NCBI GenBank assembly: GCA_038873795.1
Contig: JAVZDR010000024.1
Coordinates: 1-8,094 of the forward strand
Direction of reading: 5' to 3'
DNA length: 8,094 nt
Source: Candidatus Micrarchaeaceae archaeon
GTDB taxonomy: Archaea; Micrarchaeota; Micrarchaeia; Micrarchaeales; CABMGC01
The position numbers and the translations under genes are program-made. Under the pieces are notes generated by a model that ran no database searches, was not told where the DNA came from, and saw only the letters and a program-made list of their open reading frames with translations. Numbering within the stretch: the stretch's first letter is position 1; every line of letters begins with the position of its first letter. Below, piece after piece: positions 1 through 8,094 of this stretch.

Positions 1-42
1 GTGAATCCTCTTTCTTCCCGCTAAAAAGACGATGCGCAACGC

Positions 43-50
43 TTATTAAT
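43..50 (+). promoter_or_regulatory. Putative archaeal TATA box for secG (leaderless transcript)
   Basis: AT-rich TTATTAAT lies 21-28 nt upstream of the ATG at 71, with no SD-like motif. Confidence 0.45.
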
Positions 51-70
51 TTTGCTGCGCAAATCTGATT

Positions 71-226
71 ATGGCAACCTTGTCAACGCCGCAGCAGCAG
101 GCCGGCATACTGAGCTTTTACGATGCGCCTGAAAAGGGGCCGCGGGTCAGTGTGAAAGCCGTTATAATACTCGTAATTGTATTCGCGCTAATTGTAGCGA
201 TCTTCGACCACGCCGCTGCTATATAG
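71..226 (+). CDS. secG: Preprotein translocase subunit Sec61beta (archaeal SecG/Secbeta), 51 aa
   Basis: Manual translation: MATLSTPQQQAGILSFYDAPEKGPRVSVKAVIILVIVFALIVAIFDHAAAI*. The 'AGILSFYD' segment matches the AG(L/I)xx(F/Y)(Y/F) motif of Sec61beta and is followed by one C-terminal TM helix. It is below the ORF-track length cutoff. Confidence 0.9.
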   Translation: MATLSTPQQQAGILSFYDAPEKGPRVSVKAVIILVIVFALIVAIFDHAAAI

Positions 227-240
227 GGCTTGGCCTGCGT

Positions 241-1281
241 TCAGTTTCTCTGCTTTGTTGCCTCCCTTGGGGGCAGCACAATATTTATCTTTGCACCGCA
301 CTTAGGGCACCTGCCGTCGCTGGTTATATTGTATTCTAATATGTCAAAGACGAATCTTTTTATCAACAGGGCGCCGCACTCCGGGCAGTATGTATTCTCA
401 TACTTGTGGCCAGGCACATTGCCCAGGTAGACATATCGCATTCCCTCTTCCTTAGCCACTTTGTAATGGCTCTCAAGCGTCTCGACTGGCGTCGATGGGA
501 AGTCAAGCATCTTGAAATCTGGGTGGAATCGCAGGAAATGCAGTGGCACGTCTGGGCCCATGTTGTCATAAATCCACTTTACCATCTTCCTCGCATCTTC
601 TAGAGAGTCGCCCACCTTGGGCACGACAAGGTCTGTTATCTCGATGAATATGCCCTTCTTTTTCATCTCGAGCAACGCATCGAATATTGGGTGCTCCGAT
701 ATTATAGAGATGTACTTCCTCGAGAACTGCGTGTTTGCATTGCCTTTAAAGTCGACAGTCATGGCATCTATGTAGCCTGCGGCTGCATCCACAGCCTCTG
801 GAGTCATATAGCCGTTTGTTACGAATGTGTTGAAGATTCCAGCCTTGTGAGCCTCCTTTGCTGCATCGATCGCATACTCCATGAAGATTGTCGGCTCGTT
901 GTATGTGTAGGTTATGCCATCTACCCCATATTTCTTCCCGAGATTTATAAGCTCCTTGGGCATTATATCAGTGCCGATCAGCTCACGCTCATGGCTTATG
1001 TCCCAGTTCTGGCAGTAGAGGCAGTTGAAGTTGCATCCCACAGTGCCTATGCTGAGCATCGACGCCCCAGGCTTGTAGTGGAAGAGTGGCTTCTTCTCAA
1101 TCGGGTCTATGTTGAGAGCAGCTATGTGCCCATAGACAAGGAGGTAGACCTTGCCGCCCTTGTTGGCCCTGACGCCACAGAACCCTTTCTGGCCATCGCC
1201 TATGTTGCAGCGCCTGGCGCAGAGGTTGCAAATAGCCCTTTTGTTTGGCAGCTGCTCGTAAAGTATGCCCTCCTTCTCCAT
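241..1281 (-). CDS. amrS: AmmeMemoRadiSam system radical SAM enzyme (PFL-activase-like family), 346 aa
   Basis: N-terminal CxxCxxxC..G.CGVR.N, 'DPIEKKPLFHY', radical SAM motif CNFNCLYC followed by QNWDIS, 'YTYNEPTI', 'HFLRFHP', 'YVYLGNV', and a C-terminal Zn-ribbon CPECG...CPKCG. Confidence 0.9.
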   Translation of the reverse strand: MEKEGILYEQLPNKRAICNLCARRCNIGDGQKGFCGVRANKGGKVYLLVYGHIAALNIDPIEKKPLFHYKPGASMLSIGTVGCNFNCLYCQNWDISHERELIGTDIMPKELINLGKKYGVDGITYTYNEPTIFMEYAIDAAKEAHKAGIFNTFVTNGYMTPEAVDAAAGYIDAMTVDFKGNANTQFSRKYISIISEHPIFDALLEMKKKGIFIEITDLVVPKVGDSLEDARKMVKWIYDNMGPDVPLHFLRFHPDFKMLDFPSTPVETLESHYKVAKEEGMRYVYLGNVPGHKYENTYCPECGALLIKRFVFDILEYNITSDGRCPKCGAKINIVLPPREATKQRN

Positions 1282-1300
1282 AATAAGATTATTGCGTATA

Positions 1301-1308
1301 TATTTATA
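1301..1308 (-). promoter_or_regulatory. Putative TATA box for amrS (leaderless)
   Basis: Minus-strand TATAAATA lies 20-27 nt upstream of the ATG at 1281. Confidence 0.55.
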
Positions 1309-1373
1309 GCAGTAGTTGGCGTAGGCGATTTGCCCTTCTTGGGCAGCTTTCCCTTTTCAAGGCTCAGAGTCTC

Positions 1374-3050
1374 TCAGGATTTCATTGCTTCCGTGATACT
1401 TTCCAGCATCTTATTCTGGCCTACGCCGTATTCCTTGACCTTCTCGATGTCTACGCCAGCCTTCTTAGCTATGTTTTCAACTACCCTGAGCATTATACTC
1501 CCGCCGAATTCTATTATGCCACTTGTTATGCGCCGTGAGATGGCATTGCCCTTTCCTTCGTATTTTGCATCACGCGCAGCCATCTTGGCAAGGTGCCTGT
1601 ATGAAGCATAGTAGACTGCAAGCATAGACTTTGAAAGTGCCTCCCTGTTCAGCGACCTTGCCTTTATCCTGCCTAATGGCACGTTGAGCATAGGTGTAAC
1701 CGTGAATTCGAAGGGCCTATTGTCGACGAAAGAGTTGCTCAACTTGTTTATAAGTGCAACGGTCTCCCAGTTGTCATCATCAGTCTCGCCCTCCTGGCCG
1801 ACCTGCACTGTGAATGCTGGTCTCCAATAGTTCTTTGTCTCGACTTCTACTCCTTTCCAGACTATCTCCTGCCAGCTGCCATCTACGCCGATCTTCAGCG
1901 GCAGGGTCTTTGCAGGCATATGCTTTTTGGCGAGCTCCTCGCTGCCAGTCTCGAGGCCTGTCTGAACGCCTATCCAGTTGTTCGGACCGGCATGCATCAC
2001 CTTAGAGAGCTTTTCAATCAGCTCAGGGAAGCCCGCGGGTATAGATATTCTGGCATGTGTAGGATTTGAAGTCTTTACTCCCGGAATTGACATTACCGCC
2101 TGCATCAGCTCAATGAGTGCATCCTCGTTAGGCTCGAAGAACTTGCCGTGCTTGTAGCCGAAGAATTCATCTGTGTGCAGCCAAGCCTTGTTAGATCCGC
2201 CCTCTCTTACGTTTACTTCCACTTCCTTCCTAATCATATCTATTGTGTAGTACCTGAGAGGCCTCAGCGTCACCTCGCAGAAGTCACATCCTATGCCGCA
2301 GCCGCGCATTATCTCTACAAGCGACTTTATTGAGGGCCTGACAATCGTTGGGATCTTCTCGAGGCTTGGATATGCCCCATAGGAGGTCCTTGCAATGTAC
2401 CTCTCATCGTCTACCGAGATCATGTGGAACATGCTATCGAAGGTTATATAGCCCCTCCTGAACATCTTTGTGTCAATGCTGTCTGTGGCGATCTGCTCGA
2501 AGAGCTCATTGGCTACGTCATCTATCTCGCCCTGCACGGCATAATCTATCTTCTGCTTGGCAAAGTCGTCGTTCAACACGGTAAAGTCCCATACGCCCGG
2601 CCCGCCGACTACAAGCTTGGCCTTCTTACCAGCCCTCAGCTTGTTCAAGTAGTCAATTAGGTCATACCACTCCTGGCGCACCCATGCGTCGGGATCGCCG
2701 AAGAGCGCCGCATATGACATTGTCAATGGGCCTATGCCATAAGGATCCATTGTCGAAACGCCAATCACTTCTGTCTTATCATCTATGAACCTGTGGGCGT
2801 TGAAGATGTCTGTAACGGCTACATCTTCCCTGGGATTCTTCTGGAGGAGGGCGGCCTCGATCTTCCTAATTGAGTATGGTGCATGAAGCAGCTGCCCGTC
2901 CGGATAAGTCTTTGGGGGCTTGCCCCTGAGAAAGTTGTAGATGACCCTAGGGACGGATTTTTGTGGCGCGCTGGGCAGAAAGTCCAGTAGAGGAAAATCC
3001 CTGAATGTGTATATCAGCGTCGAGTCCGCGACGAGCACGTATCTGGCCAT
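1374..3050 (-). CDS. B12-binding-domain-like radical SAM protein, probable GDGT ring synthase (Grs)-family / tetraether-lipid-modifying enzyme, 558 aa from ATG 3050
   Basis: Radical SAM motif RGCGIGCDFC. The N-terminal 'VLVADSTL..F.DFLPSAP...APYSIRKIEAAL', 'GVSTMDPYG.GP', 'VVGGPGVW', 'KEVEVN' and 'GLETGS..L..K.M.AK' resemble GrsA/GrsB-family motifs as I recall them. ATG at 3050 is preferred over GTG at 3071 because a TATA-like element lies at about 3075-3081. Confidence 0.7.
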   Translation of the reverse strand: MARYVLVADSTLIYTFRDFPLLDFLPSAPQKSVPRVIYNFLRGKPPKTYPDGQLLHAPYSIRKIEAALLQKNPREDVAVTDIFNAHRFIDDKTEVIGVSTMDPYGIGPLTMSYAALFGDPDAWVRQEWYDLIDYLNKLRAGKKAKLVVGGPGVWDFTVLNDDFAKQKIDYAVQGEIDDVANELFEQIATDSIDTKMFRRGYITFDSMFHMISVDDERYIARTSYGAYPSLEKIPTIVRPSIKSLVEIMRGCGIGCDFCEVTLRPLRYYTIDMIRKEVEVNVREGGSNKAWLHTDEFFGYKHGKFFEPNEDALIELMQAVMSIPGVKTSNPTHARISIPAGFPELIEKLSKVMHAGPNNWIGVQTGLETGSEELAKKHMPAKTLPLKIGVDGSWQEIVWKGVEVETKNYWRPAFTVQVGQEGETDDDNWETVALINKLSNSFVDNRPFEFTVTPMLNVPLGRIKARSLNREALSKSMLAVYYASYRHLAKMAARDAKYEGKGNAISRRITSGIIEFGGSIMLRVVENIAKKAGVDIEKVKEYGVGQNKMLESITEAMKS

Positions 3051-3099
3051 TTCTAACACCAAATTTTTCACTGCCTTATAGAAGGAATCAAAGCAAAGA

Positions 3100-3170
3100 A
3101 TCTAAGAGAAATATTGTAGAAAAAATATAAAAATCTGCCACATATGCGAGGTGAGTATCGCAAGGGCAAA
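3100..3170 (-). terminator. Putative terminator downstream of tRNA-Ile (hairpin plus T-rich tract)
   Basis: On the minus strand, TTTGCC..TGCGA-loop-TCGCA..GGCAGA is followed by TTTTTATATTTTTTCT. Confidence 0.4.
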
Positions 3171-3178
3171 TGTTTGGA

Positions 3179-3272
3179 TGGGCCCGGAGAGATTTGAACT
3201 CTCGACCTTCCGATCTTTGAAGGGCAATGCCCTTATCAGTCGGACGCTCCGACCATGCTAAGCTACGAGCCC
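3179..3272 (-). tRNA. tRNA-Ile(GAU) with 19-nt intron at 37/38 (intron 3215-3233)
   Basis: Minus strand: GGGCTCG TA GCTT AGCATGGTCG GAGC G TCCGA CTGATA [AGGGCATTGCCCTTCAAAG] A TCGGA AGGTC GAGAG TTCAAAT CTCTC CGGGCCC A. It forms a complete cloverleaf of 75 nt after splicing, with the anticodon at 3235-3237. CCA is not encoded directly after the discriminator. Confidence 0.95.
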
Positions 3273-3294
3273 ACATGTTTAAATATGCACGAAT

Positions 3295-4272
3295 TTATTT
3301 ATATTGCTTATTCTTTTCTTTGGAAATGCTGGCAAAGCGCCTGAAATCTGAGAGCAATTCGTGCTCAAGCCTCTTCAGGCGCAACGCCGCGGCAGGATGG
3401 AATGTCAGCATAAACTTTATGCCATCCCTCTCGAATATTTTGCCGTGGTTCTTGTTCACATCCCCGATGCCAAGCAGTGCATTACCCGCGGTGTCGCCAA
3501 GAAGCAGCACGTATTTTGGCGCTATAATGGCAATCTGCCTCCTAAGGAAAGGGAGGCATTCGCGTATCTCCCCTTCTGTGGGTTGCCTGTTCTTTGGCGG
3601 AAAGAATTGCACCACGCTTGTTATGTATACCTTCTCGCGCCTCATCCCGGCTCTTCTTAGCATGCTTTCGAGGAGCTGGCCGCTTCTGCCAACAAAGGGC
3701 CTCTGCTGGGCGTCTTCATTCGCGCCTGGCGCCTGGCCTATAATCATGATCTTTGCATCGAGAGGGCCCTCGCCCTTTACGAACCTTGCGCTCAACCCCC
3801 AGCCCCTCTTCTCTGAGAGCCTTGCATACTCCTCGTTAAGGGCGTCCATTGCGTCTATCCTCGAGGCGTATTCGTCGGCAGCCTTTATAAGTTCCTTTGT
3901 GTCTTTGTATGAAGCCTTGAGCATTGCATCATTGTAGTCAAGCCAAACATAGCCTGTGTGCTCTTTTGATATTCTGACCTTGTCGTCGCCCTTCCGGACC
4001 TCGCCAAGGAAGACTGTAAGAGACTTGAGTACCTTCACTTTGCCCTCGTAGAAGAAGTACTTATAACTCTGCCTGAAGAATGGCTTTACCTCAGGCACCA
4101 TACCAGTCTCCTCTCTTGTTTCACGTATCGCTGCATCATATGCTTTCTCGCCTTTCTCTATGTGGCCTTTGGGTATGTCAAGCCTGCCATCATCCCTCTT
4201 AAGGAAGAGGAAGAGTCTTTTGCCACTCTCTTTTTTGTATATGAAAATGCCAGCTGAGTACTCGAACCTCAT
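3295..4272 (-). CDS. Fusion protein: N-terminal Nudix hydrolase (Ap4A-hydrolase-like) + C-terminal family-4-like uracil-DNA glycosylase domain, 325 aa
   Basis: Intact Nudix box G-HIEKG-E-KAYDAAI-RE-TR-EE-TG with 'PKGH' and 'IS.EH..Y.W' typical of Ap4A hydrolases. UDG motifs 'GEGPLDAKIMIIGQAPG.NED...RPFVG.SG', 'PP.NR.P', 'LLG..A' and 'TFHPAA'. Confidence 0.9.
   Translation of the reverse strand: MRFEYSAGIFIYKKESGKRLFLFLKRDDGRLDIPKGHIEKGEKAYDAAIRETREETGMVPEVKPFFRQSYKYFFYEGKVKVLKSLTVFLGEVRKGDDKVRISKEHTGYVWLDYNDAMLKASYKDTKELIKAADEYASRIDAMDALNEEYARLSEKRGWGLSARFVKGEGPLDAKIMIIGQAPGANEDAQQRPFVGRSGQLLESMLRRAGMRREKVYITSVVQFFPPKNRQPTEGEIRECLPFLRRQIAIIAPKYVLLLGDTAGNALLGIGDVNKNHGKIFERDGIKFMLTFHPAAALRLKRLEHELLSDFRRFASISKEKNKQYK
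3296..3303 (-). promoter_or_regulatory. Putative TATA box for tRNA-Ile, embedded in the last codons of the Nudix-UDG gene
   Basis: Minus-strand TATAAATA lies 24-31 nt upstream of the tRNA 5' end at 3272. Confidence 0.5.
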
Positions 4273-5789
4273 GCACCCACCAGCTTGCTTGATGTGCAGT
4301 AAGCACTTTCAAGATAATCTGCCTCAGTCCTGTTTGTGTAGAGGGAGATTGGAAAATCCAGCAAGGCGGTGTAAAGCCTGTCATATTTGCAGTGTATGCC
4401 TGTAAGGTTCTTGGCTGGCATTACCACAAAGGCATCGGCAAAAACCGCGCTGGCATTTACAACATAGGCGAGCTCTGTGCTGTAGACAAAGAACCTAGTG
4501 CCGTTGGATTCTACATCGTATATGCTTGCTGGCACACCATTAACGCCCATTGCGCCCATCCTCCCGAATATTGTGGTGTTTTTAAGCAGGTCGCTAATGA
4601 TGCTTGGGTTGGGCTTGGTGACGAGCACAACTATGGGGCTCTGGTTTGTAAATGTCTCATTTGAAAGCAATACCAGCGCGGCGTTCTGTGTCACTTCGGA
4701 GAAGCTGGAAAAGTTCATGCCGCTGCCTATCTCTGAAAGGTCCGATGCAAGGCTCTTGCTCGCGAGGGGGTTGAACTGGGCATGATTGTATACAAGCATG
4801 GGCGATATATTGAGTGCAGTCGAGTAATTGGCTGTAATTGCGAGGTAGGCAAATGAGAGCGCAAGCGCCGCAAAGATGGAAGGGGAAGCTAAGCGCAGCG
4901 TCGCAAGGCTGGAAAGAGAGCGCCTTTGCGTCCTCTTTGTGAAGGGCATCCTGAGCCCGAAGAGCGGAGCGGCAACGAGCATCACGATTATATCAGCATA
5001 GAAGAGAAGCATGCCCGCAAAGTTGTGAACAAATGATACTGCTGCGTTTGGCCCGCTTGCTATCCACAGATAGCCTATTGCAGACATCCTGGCTATATTG
5101 AGGAGAAGGAGGAGGGCAAAGGCAGCCACTATCCAATATACCTTCCTTGAGAGCCTGCCGTTATAGAAATATGCGACCGGTATTAGGAAGAAGACTATGC
5201 CTATCAACATGCCTATGCCTGCGCATGTGGTGCCTATGCCTATGAGATAGCCGCCTGCCCTGATTGAAAGGGGCGGCATGTAGGCTGCGCTTGAGTCAAA
5301 GGCGTGTATTATTGAGTAGACTACAGCAGTATTCAGCCTTGCAAAACCTTGGTTCACGCCCACAAGAGGCGTAAGGAATATCGGCGATGCAAAGAGTGTA
5401 TAGATGAGGATGCTCTTGAATGAGCTAAGGTTCTTGAAGCCGAAGAGTATTATGGCTATGGCTGCAAACCCAAGGGGCATTAGGAGCATATCAACCTTGA
5501 AGCTCATGTAGAGTATCGAAAATGCAAGCCTCAGGTATATTGCCAAGGCAATGAAAACCGCAAATAAGCATATGCCAAGTATTGTGCTTTTGGCGCTCGG
5601 CCTTGGAATCAGCTTGTTTTTTGCGGCAAAGAGCGCAAAGAGGGGCAGCATCAGCATTGGCACTATCACGTATGTTGTCGGATCTGTGTCAAGTATCGAA
5701 AATGAGGTTATTGAAAGCGATGTGAGAAGCATCACCACAATGGCTATAGCAAAGACCACAATGCCAATCCCTTTAGTGTAATGCCTCAT
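4269..5789 (-). CDS. Exosortase/archaeosortase family membrane protein with extracellular C-terminal domain (~506 aa)
   Basis: Polytopic membrane protein with the catalytic-triad contexts 'IGTTCAGI' (Cys), 'LLLNIARM' (Arg) and 'FVHNFAG' (His). The ATG at 5789 is preceded by SD-like GGTGG; an alternative TTG start lies at 5801. Its stop overlaps the next start (ATGA at 4269-4272). Confidence 0.85.
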   Translation of the reverse strand: MRHYTKGIGIVVFAIAIVVMLLTSLSITSFSILDTDPTTYVIVPMLMLPLFALFAAKNKLIPRPSAKSTILGICLFAVFIALAIYLRLAFSILYMSFKVDMLLMPLGFAAIAIILFGFKNLSSFKSILIYTLFASPIFLTPLVGVNQGFARLNTAVVYSIIHAFDSSAAYMPPLSIRAGGYLIGIGTTCAGIGMLIGIVFFLIPVAYFYNGRLSRKVYWIVAAFALLLLLNIARMSAIGYLWIASGPNAAVSFVHNFAGMLLFYADIIVMLVAAPLFGLRMPFTKRTQRRSLSSLATLRLASPSIFAALALSFAYLAITANYSTALNISPMLVYNHAQFNPLASKSLASDLSEIGSGMNFSSFSEVTQNAALVLLSNETFTNQSPIVVLVTKPNPSIISDLLKNTTIFGRMGAMGVNGVPASIYDVESNGTRFFVYSTELAYVVNASAVFADAFVVMPAKNLTGIHCKYDRLYTALLDFPISLYTNRTEADYLESAYCTSSKLVGA

Positions 5790-5809
5790 CCACCGCACCA
5801 AAGAATTTT

Positions 5810-5867
5810 GTCCTCAGCCGATATAGGCCTCATCACATTTCAGCAGTTACTCTTTTCTTCACAGGAC
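5810..5867 (-). ncRNA. Box C/D 2'-O-methylation guide sRNA (58 nt)
   Basis: Minus strand: GTCC T [C: GTGAAGA] AAAGAGTAACTG [D': CTGA] AAT [C': GTGATGA] GGCCTATATCGG [D: CTGA] GGAC. All four boxes are in order, both guides are 12 nt, there is a terminal stem GTCC/GGAC, and a TATA box lies about 25 nt upstream. Confidence 0.9.
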
Positions 5868-5888
5868 GTTATTATTTATGCTTCTTGC

Positions 5889-5896
5889 TTTATATA
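5889..5896 (-). promoter_or_regulatory. Putative TATA box for the C/D sRNA (and possibly the downstream exosortase operon)
   Basis: Minus-strand TATATAAA lies 22-29 nt upstream of the sRNA 5' end at 5867. Confidence 0.6.
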
Positions 5897-5907
5897 TCTG
5901 CGTTTGA

Positions 5908-5994
5908 AGCCAGGAGGGGGACTTTCGTATGGGATATGTCGAACCCCCCTCTGCCGCTCTGCAGGCGGCTGCATAGCCGATCTGCCATCCTGGC
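5908..5994 (-). tRNA. tRNA-Cys(GCA) with 16-nt non-canonical intron at 59/60 in the T-loop (intron 5922-5937)
   Basis: Minus strand: GCCAGGA TG GCA GATCGGCTA TGC A GCCGC CTGCAGA GCGGC AGAG GGGGG TTCGAC [ATATCCCATACGAAAG] T CCCCC TCCTGGC T. Anticodon GCA is at 5960-5962, with G37 and the U73 discriminator typical of tRNA-Cys. It is 71 nt after splicing. Confidence 0.95.
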
Positions 5995-6060
5995 CTAATA
6001 GTATAAATGTGAAAAAGATATAAAGATGCTCTATAACTATTATACATCTGTGGTGTCTCT
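5995..6060. promoter_or_regulatory. Divergent AT-rich promoter region for tRNA-Cys (-) and the CBS-HPF/pilin unit (+)
   Basis: Minus-strand TTTATAT at about 6018-6024 lies about 25-30 nt upstream of tRNA-Cys. Plus-strand TATA-like elements (TATAAA at 6003 and ~6019, TATAAC at 6032) precede the ATG at 6061. Confidence 0.5.
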
Positions 6061-7203
6061 ATGGAAAATGCATTCGAAACCCTTCCAAAAGAATTTGTTT
6101 CTGCAGCAAAGTTCTGCGATTACAAGACGCCAGTGATGGAGGCTGTCGATGACATAAAAAGGTTTGGGGCTGTGATAGTCACCAAGCAGGGTCGCTACTT
6201 CGGCATAGTCGATACGAGAACCATGGCAAGGGTGCAGCGGTCAAAGCTCACAAAAGGCTTCCCGATAGGCAAGCTTGCGATCAAGGCGCCACTCATAGAC
6301 GATGGCACCTCTATAGACAACGCAATACTGAATTTCCACAACACCTCCACAAAGGTGCTCCCCTACGCTGAGAAGAACAAGATACGCGGCGTAATAAACA
6401 GGGAGAAGATACTGAGTGCAATGCTTTCGCTCCACACCCTCTCGAAATTCAAGGTTGCGGATGGCATGTCTACGCCTGTCATAGGAGTAAGCAAGGATTC
6501 AAACCTGGCGCAGGCGATAGCGGCAATGCGGAACAACAACATAAATAGGCTGCTTGTTATTGATAGCGGCAAGGTCTTCGGCATACTGACCTATGCAGAC
6601 ATAATGGGCATACTCTCAAAGCCTTCTGAAAGGATGCCAAAATTCAAGTCGGAAAGTTCCTCGATGAGCAACATAAGTGTTAGCAGCGTCTGCGCAAGGG
6701 AGGTATACAGCATAGAGCAGGACAGCAGCATAGAAGACGCAATGAGGGAATTCTTAAGGAGGAATATCTCCTCTCTGCTTGTGACAAGGGGAGGCAGGCC
6801 AATAGGTATAATAACAGTGAATGATGTCTTTGGCGTAGCTGTGGCAAATTCCACTGCCGTTGAGAACAAGATAATAATATCTGGGCTTGACGACTACACG
6901 AAAGAATATGAAGAGGAGATAACCAACGAGCTGAACAGGGTTGCTGACAAGGTTGGCAGATTCAGCAAGCTGAAGGTTGATTCCATAGCTGTAAACGTGA
7001 GGAGGAAGAGGGAAAGGAACTATGAGATGAAAGCCAGGGTGATGCTGAGCAAGAGGGGCAGCATAATCGTTTATTCGAATGGCTACACCATCAGCGAAAC
7101 CCTAAAAGATTTAGTTAGTAAGATTTATAGGAAGATAAAGACAAGGAAGGAAGAAATTGTAACTTATAAAAAGTCTAAAGTTGGCGCATATGAGGAAGTA
7201 TAG
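6061..7203 (+). CDS. Four-CBS-domain protein with C-terminal HPF/RaiA-like domain; probable archaeal ribosome hibernation factor (Hib type), 380 aa
   Basis: Four CBS repeats (e.g. 'YFGIVD', 'IRGVIN', 'VADGMSTPVI..A..AM....INRLLV...VFGILT..DI', 'ISSLLV....PIGIIT..DV'). These are followed by a basic ~100-aa domain (KIIISGL...AVNVRRK...YEMKARV...IVYSNGYTISETL..LV.KI.RKI) with the beta-alpha-beta-beta-beta-alpha pattern of HPF/RaiA. Confidence 0.8.
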   Translation: MENAFETLPKEFVSAAKFCDYKTPVMEAVDDIKRFGAVIVTKQGRYFGIVDTRTMARVQRSKLTKGFPIGKLAIKAPLIDDGTSIDNAILNFHNTSTKVLPYAEKNKIRGVINREKILSAMLSLHTLSKFKVADGMSTPVIGVSKDSNLAQAIAAMRNNNINRLLVIDSGKVFGILTYADIMGILSKPSERMPKFKSESSSMSNISVSSVCAREVYSIEQDSSIEDAMREFLRRNISSLLVTRGGRPIGIITVNDVFGVAVANSTAVENKIIISGLDDYTKEYEEEITNELNRVADKVGRFSKLKVDSIAVNVRRKRERNYEMKARVMLSKRGSIIVYSNGYTISETLKDLVSKIYRKIKTRKEEIVTYKKSKVGAYEEV

Positions 7204-7651
7204 GCTGCAGTCAAGCTTTGAGCTGCTCATAACGCTCTCTCTTGGACTAGCTATACTACTGCCTATAGTGGTGCTTGCCTTCATGCAGATGGCTAGCGCA
7301 ACGTCATCGCTTGCTGCCATAGAGTCGCAGCAGGCGGCATCCAAGCTTGCAAGCATTGCCACACTAGTTGGAAGCGAGGGGCCACCTGCTAAGCAGCTTG
7401 TTCAAATTGAGGTTCCGCCAGGAGTGCAGTATATCTATGTGGGCACTGCAAATGGTGGCATAGGTCACGCAATAACATTTGTCATAAGGTCGGGCTCAGG
7501 GCTCAATTACGTCACTTCTTACACGCCAGTCAACGTGAGTGGCAATCTCGGCGGGATAGTAGCTACCGGCACATACCTTGTGAACGTGAGTGCCACATCG
7601 GCATGCCCCTTCCAAGCGCCAGTGCCTTGCGTTTACATATCGCCCTCGTGA
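7190..7651 (+). CDS. Type IV pilin-like protein with class III signal peptide, 153 aa
   Basis: MRKYRL-QSSFELL...: a basic leader, Q at +1, E at +5, then a hydrophobic helix, an amphipathic helix, a 'G.G.PAK..V.IEVP' beta-rich domain and a C-terminal Cys pair. The ATG at 7190 overlaps the end of the upstream gene. Confidence 0.75.
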   Translation: MRKYRLQSSFELLITLSLGLAILLPIVVLAFMQMASATSSLAAIESQQAASKLASIATLVGSEGPPAKQLVQIEVPPGVQYIYVGTANGGIGHAITFVIRSGSGLNYVTSYTPVNVSGNLGGIVATGTYLVNVSATSACPFQAPVPCVYISPS

Positions 7652-7728
7652 CAATGTTGATTTGATGCCCAACGGAAAGCCACCGGAAAGCGCAGCACGC
7701 TGCGAAATTGCCTCAGGGTGCGGATGCA

Positions 7729-8094
7729 ATGTTTAGAAAAGCGCAGTTTTCTGTAGAGTTCATGATCGTCTTCTCATTCATACTGCTTGTCTTCCTCTTC
7801 CTCTTTGCAATGATAACTTCGCAGAGGTCGCTCGGCCTGAGCAACCAGCTCTTCTCGCAGATGCAGCTCATAGCGCAGAGCATCGCATTGCAGATAAACA
7901 ACGCCATAAGCGCAGGCAGCGGCTATTCAACTTCAATGCACATAGGCACGACGGTAGGGCTTGTGCCATACAACCTTACAATAACAAAGAATGGCATGAT
8001 AGTAGTGAGCGCATATGTGGGCAAGCAGCTGATGCAGGCAAGGGCATATTCAATGGCAAAGAGCATAGTATCGTCGCCAAGTTTCGTGGCAAGC
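7729..8094 (+). CDS. Class III signal peptide (pilin-like) protein, 3'-truncated by window end
   Basis: Manual translation: MFRKA-QFSVEFMIVFSFILLVFLFLFAMITSQRS...IAQSIALQINNAISAGSGYS..., open to 8094. It has the canonical K-A|Q-x-x-x-E prepilin motif and an upstream GGGTG SD-like element. It is absent from the ORF track because it has no stop in the window. Confidence 0.85.
   Translation, partial: MFRKAQFSVEFMIVFSFILLVFLFLFAMITSQRSLGLSNQLFSQMQLIAQSIALQINNAISAGSGYSTSMHIGTTVGLVPYNLTITKNGMIVVSAYVGKQLMQARAYSMAKSIVSSPSFVAS

Follow-up and report, generated by a model that had tools for sequence, protein, structure and literature searches.

The window analyzed here is an 8,094-nt stretch of DNA from a Candidatus Micrarchaeaceae archaeon (assembly GCA_038873795.1, contig JAVZDR010000024.1, positions 1 to 8,094) of the order Micrarchaeales. 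On its minus strand, at positions 3295..4272 including the stop codon, lies a gene encoding a single 325-residue protein in which a Nudix hydrolase domain is joined through a long helix to a uracil-DNA glycosylase (UDG) domain. The open reading frame (ORF) begins with ATG and is free of internal stops, and its start codon is consistent with homologues, whose N-termini read M-x-F-E-Y/F-S-A-G. Pfam recognizes PF00293 (NUDIX) at residues 6-130 (E 5.3e-16) and PF03167 (UDG) at residues 167-302 (E 7.7e-36), and the NCBIfam model for family-4 UDGs, TIGR00758, is passed with 167 bits (cut-off 125.3). An original prediction, made from the letters alone, had described one ORF uniting a Nudix and a UDG domain through a helical linker, with neither frameshift nor stop; the ORF list, Pfam, NCBIfam and an AlphaFold2 model confirm this architecture.

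The protein divides into a Nudix domain (residues 1-122, 3907..4272), a connecting helix (residues 123-154, 3811..3906) and a UDG domain (residues 155-325, 3295..3810), all encoded on the minus strand. The AlphaFold2 model, computed from a 108-sequence alignment, has a mean predicted local distance difference test score (pLDDT) of 96.5 and a predicted template modelling score (pTM) of 0.92, a value which for a two-domain chain implies that the relative position of the domains is confidently modelled. A single helix, delimited on the model with DSSP, bridges both domains. Across the 108 sequences Y149 of this helix is invariant, and Y135, N146 and L152 are each conserved in at least 90%. The C-terminal part of the helix corresponds to the helix found at the N-terminus of family-4 UDGs that stand alone, and an LN-EY...W-LS portion of it is retained in the aligned stand-alone UDGs of one related genus, g22. 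A Foldseek search of the Protein Data Bank (PDB) returned no chain that spans both halves, the top TM-score on the query being 0.51.

Sequence and fold place the Nudix half (PF00293, PDB matches, Foldseek) with the hydrolases of diadenosine tetraphosphate (Ap4A) typified by NUDT2. Of the 12 PDB sequence matches at E <= 1e-3, ten are hydrolases of the wider diadenosine polyphosphate (ApnA) class, from C. elegans, human (NUDT2, three), Plasmodium, Aquifex, Chlamydia (CT771), T. thermophilus (Ndx1, two) and lupin. These alignments span the entire Nudix domain, with 1kt9, 3u53, 5cfi, 3i7u and 4ilq as the best entries, and superposition on the Ap4A hydrolases 1ktg, 3i7u, 4ijx, 3u53 and 4ilq gives TM-scores on the target of 0.80-0.88 (0.79-0.88 over all Ap4A hydrolases matched). 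The span of about residues 1-135 that the original prediction gave for an intact Nudix box holds for the domain; the box itself lies at residues 36-58 (4099..4167, minus strand), where it reads GHIEKGEKAYDAAIRETREETGM and completes the consensus GX5EX7REUXEEXGU, with Thr at the first U position. Active-site conservation in both halves was counted over 89 fused sequences, and G36, E42, R50, E51, E54 and E55 are each conserved in 88 of them, the exception being P0137.

Substrate-contacting residues of the NUDT2 type were mapped onto the fusion by hand from the alignments. The available text of PMC4734340 names a His, human K42, human Y82 and Plasmodium K94 (human K89) as ligands of the P1 phosphate, and describes the adenine as sandwiched between a conserved Tyr of loop 5 and a second Tyr or Phe (human F128). 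Human K42 corresponds to the invariant K35, K89 to K83 (conserved in at least 90%) and F128 to Y/F122, which is kept in 23 of 26 sequences. From these comparisons we conclude that the Nudix half is probably an active Nudix enzyme of NUDT2/Ap4A-hydrolase type and not of MutT or dUTPase type, the Ap4A-like substrate being suggested by resemblance.

This assignment bears directly on the function first proposed for the fusion, namely that one enzyme acts on the same damaged base in the nucleotide pool and in DNA, its Nudix half hydrolyzing dUTP or other deaminated or damaged dNTPs and perhaps replacing a missing dUTPase. The source genome (600 kb in 55 contigs, estimated 94% complete) indeed has no match to the dUTPase family PF00692 or to the DCD family PF22769. 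The recurrent fusions in both orders described below argue for some functional link, and the Nudix domain of P0150 and that of a split-gene form weakly match, below threshold, the mycobacterial 8-oxo-(d)GTP phosphatase MutT1 (E 4e-12 for the split-gene form, 4e-16 for P0150). Among solved structures, however, those nearest in sequence and in fold are ApnA hydrolases and not MutT, NudI or dUTPases. The source genome also encodes a separate MutT-like Nudix protein of 158 residues, one of three further Nudix genes beside an isopentenyl-diphosphate isomerase (above its cut-off) and a NudE/ADP-ribose-like protein of 169 residues. A PF00692 match, moreover, is present in 59 of the 71 sampled genomes that carry the fusion (a manual count), the same-genus genome G019 included, so that replacement of dUTPase by the fusion does not hold as a general explanation, even if the source genome has none. 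By family, PF00692 was matched in 30 of 35 genomes of f1, the source family, and in 42 of 56 genomes of the second family of the order, f2. G019 has two such matches, and the absence from the source genome reflects either a lineage loss or a gap in the assembly. The prediction had also asked whether the genome lacks a dUTPase or a separate UDG; neither has a match there, but the dUTPase part does not carry over to most carriers. We regard action on one and the same base as unlikely. The alternative offered alongside it, a glycosylase coupled to turnover of the alarmone Ap4A, fits the predicted Nudix type better.

A Nudix fold attached to a DNA glycosylase also recalls MutY/MUTYH, in which a Nudix-like domain reads 8-oxoguanine for the glycosylase core (PMC9266487, available text), and by that analogy the Nudix half of the fusion would be a non-catalytic module for recognizing lesions or DNA. 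The Nudix-like domain of MutY is described in the same text as non-catalytic, whereas 88 of the 89 fused sequences have a complete Nudix box, metal-binding Glu included, and the domain can be aligned over its full length with active Ap4A hydrolases; we consider a purely recognitional Nudix half very improbable.

The UDG half (PF03167, TIGR00758, PDB and Foldseek) adopts the family-4 fold, with TM-scores on the target of 0.84-0.86 against 1l9g, 4zbx and 1ui0. Residue roles were assigned by aligning it to T. thermophilus UDGa (1ui0) and matching the numbers by hand to the available text of PMC5387724. Motif B reads HPAAALR, its HPA lying at 3391..3399 on the minus strand, and the catalytic His (H155 in T. 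thermophilus) is H292, present in all 89 fused sequences. The motif-3 Asn (N89) is N228 (3589..3591, minus strand), conserved in 88 of 89, and F54 and E47 correspond to F193 and E186, each found in 89 of 89. Two pocket residues are changed. Motif A (3724..3738, minus strand) reads GQAPG in place of the family-4 GE[AG]PG, as that motif is defined in PMC10359453 and the available part of PMC5387724, so that Q180 (Gln in 88 of 89) stands at the site of E41, and S219 (Ser in 86 of 89) replaces N80, which makes a bidentate contact with uracil N3 and O4. S219 opens the stretch at 3595..3618 (minus strand) that continues as VVQFFPP, with Phe at the site of a cluster-ligating Cys.

The third departure concerns the [4Fe-4S] cluster itself. 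Alignments to 4zbx and to Cys-bearing relatives place WGLS, residues 158-161 (3790..3801, minus strand), at the site of the family-4 CxxC ligands. W158 (84 of 89), F223 (87 of 89) and F/Y224 lie in or near the former Cys sites, and C239, the sole Cys of the UDG half, is the only cluster ligand retained. As read from these alignments, the UDG half derives from family 4 but is free of the cluster; it lacks two or three features that define the family and keeps its catalytic core. The original description as family-4-like stands by profile and by fold; it had overlooked the missing cluster ligands and the two altered pocket residues. Two other models fall short of their cut-offs: the archaeal type-4 equivalog NF040953 gives 157.4 bits where 250 are required, and the UdgX model TIGR03914 gives 118.8 bits where 189.95 are. 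The loss of a cluster need not abolish activity: mutation of cluster cysteines in a family-4 UDG is reported to cause only a partial loss (PMC5295032, available text), and cluster-less MutY enzymes offer a precedent in another glycosylase family (PMC11722440, available text). A possible second, independent loss is seen in genus g25 (L099, L100; G016, G127), which has a stand-alone Nudix protein 48-52% identical to the fused form and, elsewhere in the genome, a different Cys-less UDG type (GEAPG, ITN, VKSHP and an insertion). One further oddity among the relatives, the 421-residue metagenome protein P0237, is a family-4-like UDG split by an intein, with Intein_splicing and Hint matches between two UDG stretches.

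The altered pocket raises the possibility that the UDG half is no longer an ordinary uracil glycosylase, having shifted to hypoxanthine, xanthine or a 5-substituted pyrimidine, or having become a slow, tight binder of lesions. The motif-A Glu is conserved in family 4 and has a water-activating role (PMC10359453). In T. thermophilus UDGa the E41Q substitution alone cuts k2/Km 888-fold and N80A cuts it about 40-fold (PMC5387724, Table 2, available text); the near-invariance of Q180 and S219 and the missed NF040953 cut-off point in the same direction. Set against this, the catalytic His and the motif-3 Asn are conserved, as are the Phe that stacks and the Glu that excludes thymine, and in the protein P0145 Ser at the same position coexists with a canonical GEAPG. 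The genomic context argues likewise. The fusion is the sole PF03167 match of the source genome, and across 91 genomes of the order there is one such match in 61, two in 24 (the second weaker) and none in 6; if the fused enzyme did not remove uracil, the 61 genomes with a single match would conduct uracil repair without a glycosylase. A changed specificity seems unlikely to us, though it deserves to be taken seriously. Since the UDG half is the main UDG-superfamily gene of the order, it probably still repairs uracil, and we infer that it excises the base and starts base excision repair. The source genome has one match to an Endo IV-type apurinic/apyrimidinic (AP) endonuclease, four to HhH-GPD proteins and none to ExoIII.

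The fusion is widespread within one order and confined to it among the Micrarchaeota sampled. Across 201 evenly sampled genomes of the phylum, in which fused genes were counted by hand with the unpublished G197 included and G029 taken as non-fused, a near-full-length fusion occurs in 71 of the 92 genomes of the source order: 33 of 36 in f1, the source genome included, and 38 of 56 in f2. None of the 109 genomes of other Micrarchaeota families has it, and there both halves match as separate genes. Within the sampled phylum the identity of fused copies falls to about 41-45%. Species-representative genomes yielded 566 matching stretches, the best 80 of which are all full length, and the best 120 matches in a collection of 5.8 billion proteins all carry both Pfam domains, at 312-347 residues and 47-100% identity. 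About 14 representatives remain as full-length Nudix-UDG proteins after clustering at 50%. The fusion is not an assembly artefact, nor is it unique to one assembly, a possibility aired with the original prediction; the companion possibility, that one domain is inactive and non-conserved, sits poorly with a Nudix box kept in 88 and a catalytic His kept in 89 of the 89 sequences.

Database relatives of the fusion are named as Micrarchaeota. One of them, EET90367.1 (UniRef100_C7DGM0, from Candidatus Micrarchaeum), is called 'Bis(5'-nucleosyl)-tetraphosphatase [asymmetrical]', and others appear as 'NUDIX domain-containing protein', 'uracil-DNA glycosylase family protein' or 'DNA polymerase', entries which indicate that the sequence has been public for years under automatic names only. 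The original prediction knew of no characterized Nudix-UDG fusion, and as far as the open-access text available extends, no published description of such a protein was found; an open-access search likewise found no paper that treats Micrarchaeota together with uracil-DNA glycosylase.

The stand-alone UDGs of the phylum, once aligned, sort into three grades that suggest how the fusion arose. Grade C is canonical family 4 (CxxC, GEAPG, ITN, VKCRPP). Grade B keeps all of the cysteines but reads GQAPG, ITS and VKCFPP. Grade A, which comprises the fused proteins and a small number of derivatives that stand alone, has W-x-L-S for CxxC together with GQAPG, ITS and VVQFFPP. Grade B is found in genus g63 and in two genomes of another genus, G039 and G199, in which a Nudix gene of 140-147 codons is followed directly by a 186-codon UDG gene in the order of the fusion, the Nudix stop and the GTG start of the UDG overlapping by 4 nt. 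The grade-B gene of g63 is not adjacent to a Nudix gene, and in this genus the Gln/Ser variant is therefore not bound to a Nudix neighbour. A further intermediate, P0133, is a fused protein that retains every Cys. In the opposite direction, genus g22 within f2 has a grade-A UDG that keeps the distal helix and has no Nudix domain, a form that we read as a probable secondary loss of the Nudix half. An apparent split of the fusion in G150 was rejected as an assembly break, its UDG part lying at a contig end and its Nudix part opening another contig.

Two metagenome proteins show fused halves in unusual states. P0137 has a decayed Nudix box (GKRQIKHGN...GKILDKTRI) beside an intact UDG half, and P0141 carries GGSPG and YDPGS, with Asp for the catalytic His; in some lineages one or the other half appears to decay.

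The same two families have also been joined the other way round. Pfam finds UDG followed by Nudix in P0145, P0149, P0150 and P0172, one member of the P0150 cluster being named as a Thermoplasmata archaeon. In these reverse-order fusions, unlike the fusion in the window, the UDG half is canonical (CxxC, GEAPG, VKCRPP). Their Nudix domain is nevertheless of the same subtype in three of the four: those of P0145, P0149 and P0150 match the Nudix domain of the window over its whole length (BLAST E 1e-14 to 4e-12), whereas the source genome's own Nudix paralogues match it less well and only in part (6e-8). In P0161 a Nudix of another type is linked to a grade-B UDG. Reverse-order fusions are rare; of the 150 matches to P0150 listed for 201 sampled Thermoplasmatota genomes, with 31 more unlisted, none extends over both halves.

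These forms bear on a neutral account, in which neighbouring housekeeping genes were welded together during genome reduction and the two enzymes act independently, sharing nothing beyond co-expression. The overlapping split genes in fusion order, the small genomes of the carriers (0.5-1.3 Mb), the renewed loss of the Nudix half in g22, the separation of the genes in most other families and the Gln/Ser UDG of g63 without a Nudix neighbour are all in keeping with it. It accounts less readily for the rejoining of the same families in opposite order with the same Nudix subtype, for the separate joining with a different Nudix in P0161, or for a fusion kept down to about 41-45% identity with conserved helix residues and a fixed predicted arrangement (pTM 0.92). 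Retention of the fusion after transfer into or out of Thermoplasmata, whose genomes here measure 1.4-1.9 Mb, speaks against it as well. We judge a neutral merger to be quite unlikely.

At the other extreme, both halves might act on one nucleic-acid substrate instead of in parallel, or the Nudix half might sense Ap4A and gate the glycosylase, with the cluster-free Gln/Ser pocket excising the base. In the one-substrate version the Nudix site might cleave a pyrophosphate-linked adduct on DNA, for example the 5'-adenylated (AppDNA) end that remains when ligation aborts in the course of base excision repair, or else an end that is ADP-ribosylated or carries an Np4 cap. We keep this mechanism in consideration because both families have been joined repeatedly and independently, in both orders, and we rate it as improbable.

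Transfer between phyla is suggested by a quick IQ-TREE phylogeny (LG+G4) of the 89 fused proteins. Six loci with Thermoplasmata or Ferroplasma titles (L069, L070, L073, L078, L079, L084) form one clade with a Shimodaira-Hasegawa-like approximate likelihood-ratio test (SH-aLRT) support of 98, and this clade falls outside an 81-row clade that holds all of the Micrarchaeota-titled rows (support 90). All six have the cluster-free Gln/Ser form. Among the genes that flank them are those for prephenate dehydratase and dihydroorotate dehydrogenase, the archaeosortase neighbour described below is absent, and four of the six genomes measure 1.4-1.9 Mb. Misbinning was considered and judged unlikely on account of these genome sizes, the biosynthetic neighbours and the single six-copy clade. 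Micrarchaeota have been grown together with Thermoplasmatales hosts (PMC5498576, PMC8975820, available text), and given this partnership one exchange between partners is the simplest reading; with P0133 chosen by hand as the root of the tree, the exchange may have run into or out of Thermoplasmata. Two other loci, L018 (genome about 0.9 Mb) and L074, are titled 'Candidatus Marsarchaeota'; both are nested among the Micrarchaeota in the tree and have the archaeosortase gene beside the fusion, and their titles are doubtful and look like mislabelling.

Taken together, these observations lead us to propose, with a probability of roughly 0.6, that the gene encodes a two-enzyme protein in which a NUDT2-type Nudix hydrolase and a cluster-free, family-4-derived UDG are fixed to one another by a long helix, with a history that can be outlined from surviving intermediates. 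Both halves look catalytically competent from their conserved residues. The Nudix half would cleave dinucleoside polyphosphates or similar substrates with an Np(n) linkage, Np4-capped ends being one example. The UDG half would have descended from family 4, lost its [4Fe-4S] cluster with aromatic residues taking the places of three Cys ligands, and would start base excision repair of uracil in a genome that also has the Endo IV-type endonuclease. As for history, a Gln/Ser variant of the UDG would have arisen with the cluster still held; in one lineage this variant would have come to lie directly downstream of a Nudix gene, stop and start overlapping; the genes would then have fused and the cluster been lost within the fused lineage, which may have spread through one Micrarchaeota order and been exchanged once with Thermoplasmata. 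The overlapping genes of G039 and G199, with CxxC, GQAPG and ITS, and the fused, Cys-complete P0133 support this succession as intermediates. Why the two were joined is a matter for conjecture: obligatory 1:1 production of two stress 'house-cleaning' activities may have been favoured, and the Nudix domain with its helix may also buttress an N-terminal region of the UDG formerly held by the cluster.

Several points weigh against this proposal. No NCBIfam Nudix equivalog scores above its cut-off for the fusion protein, so that the substrate is drawn from resemblance only, and position 75, the counterpart of the adenine-stacking loop-5 Tyr (human Y82), carries an aromatic residue in no more than about 14 of 26 sequences by manual count. 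The losses measured for E41Q and N80A mean that the natural Gln/Ser pocket may be slow or may differ in specificity. The Nudix-less UDG of g22 and the decayed box of P0137 indicate that the halves, whose coupling is putative, can part. Finally, with a root chosen by hand the order of events amounts to an argument from parsimony. Notwithstanding these points, the fusion is a real, conserved and probably bifunctional protein assembled from two known families whose association recurs.

A conserved neighbour of the fusion gene is an upstream gene, at 4269..5801 on the minus strand, for a 510-residue membrane protein of the archaeosortase/exosortase family (PF09721, TIGR04178). Its TGA stop overlaps the ATG of the fusion as ATGA, read from the sequence, and the two are for this reason probably co-transcribed. 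Counted over the best 80 of the 566 related loci, 63 have an archaeosortase homologue as the next gene upstream, in the same orientation; the 17 loci without it include four with less than 1.2 kb of upstream flank and the six with Thermoplasmata titles. An 859-residue database protein, P0127, carries exosortase, NUDIX and UDG in one chain. We record the archaeosortase pairing as conserved synteny without evident functional logic. Downstream, 22 nt beyond the fusion stop, lies a tRNA-Ser gene with anticodon TGA (3175-3273, minus strand; Rfam 56.3 bits, ARAGORN).

On the plus strand of the window, 7181-7651 encodes a 156-residue protein that has no Pfam or NCBIfam match and a hydrophobic N-terminus, pilin-like by eye. 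It recurs at 54-73% identity in 28 of the 80 loci, where its gene invariably diverges from the archaeosortase/fusion pair, and its conservation far exceeds that of the genes around it; the adjoining CBS-domain protein of 380 residues (6061-7203, plus strand) is present in 30 of 80. On the minus strand, 241-1281 encodes a radical S-adenosylmethionine (SAM) enzyme of the AmmeMemoRadiSam system (TIGR04337, 346 bits), for which the window shows no AmmeMemo partner, and 1374-3071 a 565-residue radical SAM protein with weak matches to B12-binding radical SAM models. The former lies near the fusion in one of the 80 related loci and the latter in none.

Both domains of this protein are textbook families, and their covalent union is uncharacterised. 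Recurrence of the pairing as Nudix-UDG, as UDG-Nudix and as adjacent overlapping genes is a classic signature of two proteins that serve one process, and the fusion makes a link between nucleotide hydrolysis of the Ap4A type and archaeal uracil repair accessible to experiment. The relatives also constitute a natural series for cluster loss, from canonical enzymes through Gln/Ser forms with a cluster to fused forms first with and then without one. The UDG half breaks the family-4 rules used in annotation, and the fusion serves as a gene marker common to Micrarchaeota and Thermoplasmata. Should its halves act independently, the protein would still be the principal uracil glycosylase of an entire DPANN order, and in most cases the sole one; if the one-substrate or gating mechanism were true, it would be a new two-step archaeal repair enzyme and would for the first time tie dinucleoside polyphosphates mechanistically to base excision repair.

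Among known systems, the NUDT2-type Ap4A hydrolases (1KT9/1KTG, 3U53/1XSA, 5CFI, 3I7U, CT771) stand closest to the Nudix half, which aligns with them over the whole domain (E 3.6e-17 to 1kt9) and shares the PKGH-x-E-x-GE start of the box and an S-x-EH-x-x-[YW]-x-W segment. It differs from them in that identity is only about 24-32%, two residues are absent before PKGH, where the C. elegans enzyme has Y27-P28, the loop-5 stacking-Tyr position is variable, and a glycosylase is fused on. The UDG half has the fold of the family-4 enzymes of S. tokodaii (4ZBX), T. thermophilus (1UI0) and T. maritima (1L9G) at 36-38% identity and keeps their motif B HPA, motif-3 Asn, stacking Phe and thymine-excluding Glu. 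It departs from them in the replacement of three [4Fe-4S] cysteines out of four (W-x-L-S in the CxxC region, VQF for VKC), in GQAPG for GE[AG]PG, in Ser for the uracil-binding Asn, and in its N-terminal Nudix domain. The next-best structural matches are to UdgX of M. smegmatis (6AJO, 6AIL and other entries; TM-score on the target 0.70-0.79), which has a family-4-like fold and retains its Fe-S cysteines; the translation of the fusion contains neither the KRRIH R-loop nor the GEQPG of UdgX, its motif A being GQAPG. MutY is the single well-studied DNA glycosylase with a Nudix-fold domain in the same chain (PMC9266487, available text), but its core is of the HhH-GPD type, whereas that of the fusion has the UDG fold, and its Nudix-like domain is C-terminal, whereas that of the fusion is N-terminal with an intact box. 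The cluster-less MutYX likewise represents the loss of a cluster in a glycosylase family that normally holds [4Fe-4S], in a different enzyme family (PMC11722440, available text).

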